Shown here: in pieces, positions 31,388 to 64,000 of the stretch
How positions within the stretch are numbered: the stretch's first letter is position 1
Layout of the letters: each line of letters opens with the position of its first letter
Sequence record: NC_054908.1
DNA length: 64,000 nucleotides
Reading direction: 5' to 3' (one strand)
Origin: Escherichia phage vB_EcoM_DalCa
The notes under the pieces: generated by a model
Seen by the model: the letters and a program-made list of their open reading frames with translations, nothing else
Database searches by the model: none
What the model was told of the DNA's origin: nothing
Translations under genes and position numbers: made by a program

Positions 31388-31416
31388 ATAATATCATATC
31401 CTGTACCAAAGTAAAC
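31388..31416 (-). promoter_or_regulatory. Early promoter-like element (GTTTACT ... ATATTATA) bracketed by an 8 bp inverted repeat
   Basis: GGTACAGG / CCTGTACC flank the -10 region upstream of the 125 aa ORF. Confidence 0.4.
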
Positions 31417-35315: not shown

Positions 35316-35345
35316 ATAATATCACAACTCTACCGTAAAGTAAAC
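35316..35345 (-). promoter_or_regulatory. Early promoter-like element (GTTTACT ... ATATTATA) upstream of the 175 aa ORF
   Basis: Same architecture as the other GTTTACA elements. Confidence 0.4.
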
Positions 35346-61046: not shown

Positions 61047-61319
61047 TTATTTGTTCGTATACATCTCTAGATATCGATATACACCCTCAAAACCCTCGTT
61101 GAATTCGTCGATGAGGGTTTTCTTATCTTCTTGAGTTAATTCAGAAACAATTTTACGGAATGAATTCTGATTTAACTTTCTACCTTCATGCGTTACTCCA
61201 ATCTCATTCAGAAATGCAATAAAATTAGCACGATTCTCAACAATATCTTCTCTGGAAAATTTAATCAAAATAGACGCAACAGTAATAATTTCACGAACTG
61301 TATCAATGTTTTTATTCAT
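61047..61319 (-). CDS. asiA: Anti-sigma-70 factor AsiA
   Basis: 90 aa; TTTACA-17-TATTAT promoter upstream. Confidence 0.9.
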   Translation of the reverse strand: MNKNIDTVREIITVASILIKFSREDIVENRANFIAFLNEIGVTHEGRKLNQNSFRKIVSELTQEDKKTLIDEFNEGFEGVYRYLEMYTNK

Positions 61320-61331
61320 TAACTATACCAC

Positions 61332-61484
61332 TCAATTAGTTGACTTTGTTATAATATCATCAGACACTTGATTTGTAAACTGGTCTGTGTTATTTTCTTC
61401 AAAAATTTTTTCTACGAATTCCTTGAACGACTCGCGTTCCTGAGCTACATTATGCTCGATTACCATTTCAAGATTATGACTCAT
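61332..61484 (-). CDS. Candidate 50 aa ORF (MSHNLEMVIEHNVAQERESF...) not in ORF track
   Basis: Its ATG overlaps the arn stop codon (ATGA coupling); contains the asiA promoter in its 3' part. Confidence 0.4.
   Translation of the reverse strand: MSHNLEMVIEHNVAQERESFKEFVEKIFEENNTDQFTNQVSDDIITKSTN
61351..61379 (-). promoter_or_regulatory. Early sigma-70 promoter for asiA (TTTACA-17-TATTAT)
   Basis: Good -35/-10 with 17 bp spacer about 30 bp upstream of the asiA ATG. Confidence 0.5.
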
Positions 61485-61759
61485 TCGAAATAATCTTCAA
61501 TTTCGTAATCATGGACATAAATCATTATAGTTTTTAATACATCATCAATACTTTTTCCTGGAGCTGGAATTACGTAAAAATATCCTGCTTTTGAGAGGTC
61601 TTTATAAGTTCCAATCAAGAAATCATTATTCTCAAGATGTAACTCTTCAACTAATTCATTGACAATTGAATGGTATAGGTTTGGTAGAAACTTATATAGC
61701 TTTTCTAGAATATCAATTTTGATTGTGTATTGAACCACGGACTGAGAATCAATAATCAT
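61481..61759 (-). CDS. arn: Arn-like anti-restriction protein
   Basis: 92 aa acidic protein; position between asiA and motA. Confidence 0.75.
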   Translation of the reverse strand: MIIDSQSVVQYTIKIDILEKLYKFLPNLYHSIVNELVEELHLENNDFLIGTYKDLSKAGYFYVIPAPGKSIDDVLKTIMIYVHDYEIEDYFE

Positions 61760-61842
61760 AGACCTTCCCCTTATGTTTCTGTTTGCGATTAGATTCTTTA
61801 AACGCTTTCTTCTTATCCTTATGAACAGAAGCTTTATTAAAA

Positions 61843-62061
61843 TTATGCTTTGCGACTAAATTGTTCATAGTGCTGAATTACCTCTCTTAAACATTTGCAT
61901 GTGAATGAAAACTTTTTAGCTACACCACATTCAAATATATGTTCTCTTAAATCACGTGTATCAGTATATCCCATCTCAACAATAAAATGCCTTATTAGAT
62001 TTTTATCTTTATCATTGAGAGAATTAAAATAATCAGATTTTGAATTAATTTCCCTGGCCAA
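61843..62061 (-). CDS. Hypothetical small protein (arn.x block)
   Basis: 72 aa ORF. Confidence 0.5.
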   Translation of the reverse strand: MAREINSKSDYFNSLNDKDKNLIRHFIVEMGYTDTRDLREHIFECGVAKKFSFTCKCLREVIQHYEQFSRKA

Positions 62062-63932: not shown

Positions 63933-64000
63933 TTTAATCTCCGTTTCAGTTCATTTATTTGATAGGTCTATAGTATCATGTTTAAAGCAGAAGTAAACAC

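Follow-up and report, generated by a model that had tools for sequence, protein, structure and literature searches.

T4 early promoters depend on sigma-70 and carry GTTTAC at −35 together with an extended −10 element (PMC1524935, PMC2988021). Between arn and asiA, the T4 reference genome (NC_000866.4) annotates the small gene asiA.1 (product NP_049867.1; UniProt Q9T0T0), about which a full-text literature search returned nothing in main texts; it is named only in supplementary tables of PMC9697503. The other described system relevant here is Tad2, which consists of an N-terminal helix and a five-stranded sheet and forms a tetrameric sponge for 1''-3' gcADPR (bioRxiv 10.1101/2023.05.01.538930). 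We analyzed a window of 64,000 nucleotides from Escherichia phage vB_EcoM_DalCa (NC_054908.1), in which asiA.1 shares with its T4 counterpart the position between arn and asiA, the length, the ATGA overlap with arn and the promoter embedded in the frame; the two proteins are 94% identical, with M7K, N32Y and V40A as the sole differences.

The arn–asiA locus and the identity of the frame

The region is that of a T4-type phage (Tequatrovirus): an 801-nt query spanning the asiA.1 frame and its surroundings matched 488 phage records at 94–100% identity, the best being Escherichia phage NBG2 (99.6%), with T4 at 98.3%. The holin gene t on the plus strand is followed, on the minus strand, by asiA, asiA.1, arn, a 39-codon ORF, arn.1–arn.4 and motA. 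The features at the frame are as follows.

61047–61319, minus strand: asiA, the gene that the embedded promoter would serve (ORF list and annotation; protein 100% identical to T4 AsiA)
61332–61484, minus strand: asiA.1 coding sequence (ORF list, phrog_3762 match, T4 annotation, and T4 protein Q9T0T0 by LC-MS)
61481–61484, minus strand: ATGA, the overlap of the arn stop and the asiA.1 start (sequence and ORF coordinates)
61481–61759, minus strand: arn, the anti-restriction nuclease gene, which lies upstream within the same transcription unit (ORF list and annotation of homologous records)

The initial annotation had described an unlisted 50-codon frame opened by an ATG that overlaps the arn TGA. 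The frame is present on the minus strand with exactly the translation that had been quoted, and the overlap is evident both in the sequence and in the ORF coordinates, positions 61484–61482 forming the asiA.1 ATG and 61483–61481 the arn TGA. From its ATG the frame encodes 50 aa (5.9 kDa, pI 4.4) and ends 12 nt upstream of the asiA ATG at 61319. The word unlisted was mistaken, since asiA.1 is annotated in NC_000866.4 and in most of the Tequatrovirus records that we inspected individually, sb4 being the exception. The ORF is likewise annotated in the T4 clone MZ375356, W143, ime09, GiZh, T2, PP01 and RB51, in W143 as 'Uncharacterized 5.9 kDa protein in asiA-arn intergenic region' (the same wording as in UniProt Q9T0T0), and among the matches listed almost every annotated record has a feature under asiA.1. 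The phrog_3762 profile matched the product with an E-value of 2.7e-37, residues 1–50 lying on profile positions 1–50 of 50. Identity of AsiA.1 to most full-length Tequatrovirus clusters is 88–96%, and 75–76% to the insertion variants P0007 and P0010. The 50-codon frame is thus the T4 gene asiA.1, already known and not a new find; as a discovery it matters little, having been in the T4 annotation for decades with a product seen by proteomics.

Many GenBank and UniRef entries for AsiA.1 homologues (e.g. P0004, P0010 and P0012) are named 'anti-sigma factor'. Comparison of AsiA.1 with AsiA gave no BLASTP alignment at E ≤ 100, and there was no similarity to Arn; Pfam and NCBIfam gave no meaningful matches for either the short or the long forms of the family. 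An AsiA-type anti-sigma factor was rejected, since AsiA.1 has no detectable similarity to AsiA. The label appears to have been propagated from the name 'AsiA.1' and is unfounded.

The small ORF that the T4 reference annotation leaves unlisted is the 39-codon ORF, not asiA.1. This lysine-rich ORF (MNNLVAKHNFNKASVHKDKKKAFKESNRKQKHKGKVYDY; 61749–61868, minus strand) overlaps the arn start by 11 nt and is intact and identical in T4 (L018:352-471), yet it has no annotation in NC_000866.4. The ORF is conserved across genera, and T2, W143, GiZh, VR7 and phiR1-RT carry an annotation for it; in the last two the AsiA.1-like ORF comes immediately after it, and Bp7 has the same sequence arrangement at that place. 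The plus strand at 61089–61121, just downstream of the convergent holin gene t and within the 3′ portion of asiA, contains a terminator-like hairpin with a 14-bp stem and a T-rich stretch after it (CTTATCTTCT); fPS-2 has a terminator annotation for this hairpin, a second regulatory element within coding sequence at this locus. In Acinetobacter phage Lazarus (L026), asiA directly follows motA, and neither the arn cluster nor an AsiA.1-like ORF is present there; the arn–asiA.1 block therefore reads as an insertion between motA and asiA, which by sequence comparison would be specific to the enterobacterial T-even group.

Translation and selection on the peptide

When the 165-nt stretch was shuffled 20,000 times with its composition preserved, the coupled frame remained open for at least 50 codons in 1.0% of cases, so the open frame by itself is only mildly unusual, and the comparative and proteomic evidence is decisive. 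The stretch is short enough, at that rate, for a chance ORF in a non-coding spacer or leader that serves solely as the asiA promoter, and over the whole ORF the three codon positions vary about evenly (6/5/8), which might at first be taken for a non-coding pattern.

Detection of the T4 protein by mass spectrometry argues against such a chance ORF. Table S3 of the time-resolved T4 proteome of Wolfram-Schauerte et al. (PMC9697503) lists the sp entry Q9T0T0 (Y16A_BPT4); its LFQ values in that protein-level table are zero for columns 1–11 and 3e7 to 2.8e8 for the other 13. Sampling in that study was at 0, 1, 3, 5, 8, 12, 20 and 30 min in triplicate (24 columns); if the columns are ordered by time, the values are zero at 0–3 min, and the protein is seen in a single replicate of the three at 5 min and in every replicate from 8 min. 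Tables S2 and S4 of the same study class asiA.1 as early RNA and late protein, and AsiA appears from 1 min and reaches about 1e9 in the same protein table (PMC9697503). T4 AsiA.1 contains two tryptic peptides of convenient size. Note that the proteomic evidence concerns the T4 protein, 94% identical to that of the window.

At the DNA level, similarity to the asiA.1 ORF was confined to Tequatrovirus (483 records, 94–100% identity). ORFs directly upstream of asiA were found in four further genera:

Mosigvirus PHB12, 54 aa
Mosigvirus JK36, 53 aa
Dhakavirus Bp7, 52 aa
Gaprivervirus VR7, 54 aa
Tegunavirus phiR1-RT, 55 aa

The short ORFs of these genera, which belong to phrog_5245 (Mosigvirus, Dhakavirus and Gaprivervirus) and phrog_24016 (Tegunavirus), resemble AsiA.1 in their position, acidic character and length (52–55 aa), in an N-terminus of the form MSHNLE/Q...RxxE, in which the MSHNLE/Q start is followed by a similar xVVExxRxRE pattern, and in having a 3′ end that contains the −35 box of the asiA promoter. 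They differ from it in that identity overall is only about 25–30% and in that the overlap with the upstream gene is 11 nt rather than 4. The ORF in the same position in Jiaodavirus also starts with MSHNLE/Q, so that the motif is kept in six genera including Tequatrovirus, and PHROG cross-matches connect the AsiA.1-like groups. AsiA of the compared short-ORF phages is about 50–75% identical to AsiA of the window. Across genera, invariant residues are written with varying codons (Asn4 as AAT or AAC, Leu5 as CTT, TTA or CTA, Glu16 as GAA or GAG), a pattern that points to selection at the protein level. The first 11 nt of the ORF, ATGAGTCATAA, are invariant and in most genera also encode the end of the upstream gene (YES-stop).

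Codon-level analysis of 17 good Tequatrovirus sequences (17–18 in the set; a scan of IMG/VR gave only 7 loci) divided the frame into two parts, an indel hotspot lying in the first.

61386–61484, minus strand: codons 1–33, the conserved, protein-constrained part; predicted acidic alpha helix
61335–61385, minus strand: codons 34–50, a tail encoded by promoter and leader DNA; evolutionarily labile
61401–61411, minus strand: A6T5 homopolymer run in codons E25–F28; indel hotspot

The numbers of variable sites at codon positions 1/2/3 and the pN/pS ratios are as follows.

asiA.1, codons 1–33: 4/3/8; pN/pS 0.18
asiA.1, codons 34–50: 2/2/0; pN/pS undefined (pS = 0, pN = 0.032)
asiA.1, whole ORF: 6/5/8; pN/pS 0.36
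asiA.1 DNA in the other two frames: pN/pS about 0.74
arn: 12/3/27; pN/pS 0.05
asiA: 2/1/17; pN/pS 0.01

Constraint on asiA.1 is weak compared with arn and asiA and is estimated from few substitutions; codons 1–33 appear to be under purifying selection, and the small counts make this result supporting rather than decisive. The A6T5 run carries insertions that keep the frame, of 6 nt in Lutter and 3 nt in P0007, and frameshifts there occur only in P0013 and P0014, both metagenome assemblies. The record of Shigella phage sb4 (L013, PQ666542.1) contains two stop codons in the asiA.1 frame and one in arn, has no annotation of either arn or asiA, and is only 93.5% identical; a low-accuracy assembly seems a better account of it than true loss of the gene, and its stops were not taken as evidence of pseudogenization because arn is also broken and the record is noisy.

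The chance-ORF explanation is already contradicted by the proteomic and comparative data: besides the detected T4 protein, it has against it an N-terminal peptide kept across genera with synonymous changes, a pN/pS of 0.18 in codons 1–33 against about 0.74 in the other frames, the +3 and +6 insertions that stay in frame and the absence of RNA structure (below), and we regard it as scarcely credible. Codon-level conservation in related phages, proposed at the outset as a check, was found in the N-terminal part, both as the pN/pS of codons 1–33 and as the MSHNLE/Q motif kept with synonymous changes. Interruption of the frame with retention of the promoter, which would have spoken against a gene, occurs in the tail alone, where the frame changes in or close to the promoter in T2 and some Mosigvirus; every good-quality record examined keeps the N-terminal two thirds in frame. 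Of the two possibilities first raised, a real small gene with an embedded promoter is thus the one borne out by the T4 mass spectrometry, the cross-genus N-terminal conservation and the codon-position statistics, and we consider it very probable that asiA.1 is a real, translated small early gene of the T4 type with a promoter inside it.

The predicted promoter within the 3′ part of asiA.1

A consensus scan recovered the TTTACA-17-TATTAT promoter that had been noted in the 3′ part of the ORF. It occupies 61379–61351 of the minus strand, agrees with the consensus at 10 of 12 positions and has an upstream TG separated from the −10 hexamer by a single base.

61351–61380, minus strand: predicted asiA early promoter, consisting of GTTTACA (−35), a 17-nt spacer and TGaTATTAT (extended −10), from the consensus scan

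The site falls in codons 36–45, about 25 nt (25–32) upstream of the asiA ATG. In common with T4 early promoters it has GTTTACA, the 17-nt spacer, TGaTATTAT and an A-rich stretch upstream; against the criteria for an early promoter, it shows GTTTAC at −35, a spacer of 17 ± 1 nt, TAnnnT with TG, and a location on the early strand 5′ of an early gene. It is unlike them in lying wholly within coding sequence and not between genes. The pattern GTTTAC-N15-19-TAnnnT has 10 matches in the window, including the asiA.1 site, all on the early-gene strand, compared with 4.1 expected, and the −10 region of the asiA.1 site (TGATATTAT) is the same as at two other sites and nearly identical to that of other early-type sites of the window, e.g. 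35316–35345 and 31388–31416. Two other records annotate the promoter inside asiA.1: fPS-2 calls it a predicted early promoter, and Lutter a promoter.

Codons 34–50 hold the −35 box, the spacer, the −10 box and the first bases of the leader. Changes in these codons are nonsynonymous only and lie in the spacer and just after the −10 box, and both promoter hexamers are unchanged in 16 of 18 sequences. An equivalent GTTTACA box is found at or just past the end of the ORF in other genera, and in Jiaodavirus and Karamvirus the equivalent asiA promoter is entirely intergenic. The other genera read GTTTACA as V-Y-N and usually have a stop between −35 and −10, whereas T4 reads it as F-T-N and continues through; some Mosigvirus (LH01 type, 66 aa) have changed to the T4-like frame and, like T4, extend across the promoter. 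The last 17 codons behave as promoter DNA, not as protein. In two independent records of T2 (L011:707-853 and L028:338-484), a 2-nt deletion changes TATTAT to TATTAA and replaces the last seven AsiA.1 residues by five, giving 48 aa; judged from this sequence change, the proximal asiA promoter may be weaker in T2.

The second possibility raised at the outset, a long structured leader, did not hold. Folding of the 186-nt RNA gave z = +0.89 (160 of 200 shuffles equalled or bettered it), and an Rfam search of asiA.1 RNA gave no match at E ≤ 1; a structured 5′ leader or cis-regulatory RNA was rejected because there is neither excess folding nor an Rfam family. Another explanation is that the act of translating asiA.1 matters, not its product, ribosomes being handed over to asiA or keeping the leader unfolded or protected. 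The asiA.1 stop (TGA) does abut a purine-rich GAGTGG just upstream of the asiA ATG, and the ATGA coupling to arn gives a chain arn – asiA.1 – asiA. However, the stop lies 43–67 nt from the asiA ATG in other genera, so that the layout is not conserved, the region contains no stable structure to melt, and the conservation of the N-terminal peptide is left unexplained; such a role for translation as such is very unlikely. Our reading remains that asiA.1 is coding and not a leader, and is protein-like only in its first two thirds.

Relatives with a Tad2-like fold and the proposed role of AsiA.1

Profile search joined the short forms to proteins of 85–90 aa (phrog_7272) in the same position, present in Jiaodavirus, Karamvirus, Citrobacter phage Moon and Salmonella STP4-a-type phages; when the short forms were aligned with the long ones by hhalign, the first 26 columns matched with a probability of 94% (E 1e-7). 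Foldseek comparison of the long forms with BFVD revealed many 'Thoeris anti-defense 2-like' proteins at a probability near 1. The Tad2 match was not recovered in Foldseek against PDB, even for the long form, and sequence profiles gave no Tad2-type match for the long forms. The structural models thus suggest that the long relatives in Klebsiella and Enterobacter T4-like phages carry a Tad2/AcrIIA7-like fold and share the N-terminal helix. For AsiA.1 itself, AlphaFold2 with a 24-sequence alignment predicted one helix, with pLDDT of 82–89 in residues 1–30 and 50–55 beyond. Unlike Tad2 (DUF2829) and AcrIIA7, the modeled AsiA.1 has no beta-sheet domain and would be unable to form the Tad2 ligand pocket; a Tad2 anti-Thoeris sponge was rejected for AsiA.1, on account of its single-helix model and the lack of a Pfam match.

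The N-terminal helix of a longer Tad2-like-fold protein, of the kind found in the same position of related phages, is probably the ancestor of AsiA.1. The fuller reading, in which the T-even ORFs of 50–55 aa are truncated descendants of such a protein, the helix having taken on a new role or acting as a dominant partner of other proteins, and the promoter having advanced into the gene, is tentative; the ancestral kind of protein, a type that serves as an anti-Thoeris signal sponge, would still be found there in Jiaodavirus, Karamvirus, Moonvirus and Gelderlandvirus-type phages.

The same relatives bear on a further explanation, that the frame is a decaying remnant of the longer Tad2-like-fold gene, translated through coupling to arn, with an idle peptide and selection on the DNA only. 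It draws on the relatives of 85–90 aa in the same position, which share the first ~26 residues and have the Tad2/AcrIIA7-like fold that AsiA.1 is without, on the weak constraint over the whole ORF with its labile, frame-switching tail, and on the invariant first 11 nt, which overlap the end of the upstream gene in most genera. Set against it are the pN/pS of 0.18 with an excess of third-position changes in codons 1–33, and the forms of 50–55 aa kept open in five genera whose AsiA proteins are 50–75% identical, which is hard to account for without selection on the peptide; moreover, truncation, which this explanation presupposes, is only one of two possible directions of change, the other being domain gain. 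We judge an idle remnant unlikely, and favor a functional peptide.

For that peptide, the models suggest an acidic amphipathic helix (residues ~3–30) followed by a poorly constrained tail, whose sequence would follow from the promoter DNA and not from what the protein does. Our best guess is that AsiA.1 is a small helical binding peptide for a host or phage partner early in infection.

As for its expression, transcripts from the embedded promoter would start near 61344 and could not encode AsiA.1, and the protein would therefore come from longer messages. The nearest candidate source is the following.

63970–63998, minus strand: next upstream early-type promoter, before motA, by pattern match (GTTTAC...TGATACTAT)

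Between this promoter and asiA.1 there was no GTTTAC-type match, and a pattern search for MotA boxes found no minus-strand site near arn or asiA.1; a middle promoter for asiA.1 was rejected, as there is no nearby minus-strand MotA box. As read from the sequence, asiA.1 would be translated only from long transcripts that run through arn, likely from the promoter before motA. Upstream of its ATG there is no good Shine-Dalgarno sequence, whereas the Mosigvirus and Dhakavirus versions have one; because asiA.1 has no good site of its own, ribosomes ending arn would likely reinitiate at the overlapping ATGA. The asiA gene would additionally be transcribed from the promoter within asiA.1, which would explain why AsiA is earlier and about ten times stronger than AsiA.1 in the proteome.

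Small as it is, the locus clearly illustrates how a regulatory element can overprint a coding sequence; if the truncation reading is true, the asiA promoter moved into the gene while the C-terminal domain was disappearing. The link to the Tad2 fold provides a first testable lead for asiA.1, and it flags possible anti-Thoeris genes adjoining asiA in Klebsiella and Enterobacter phages.
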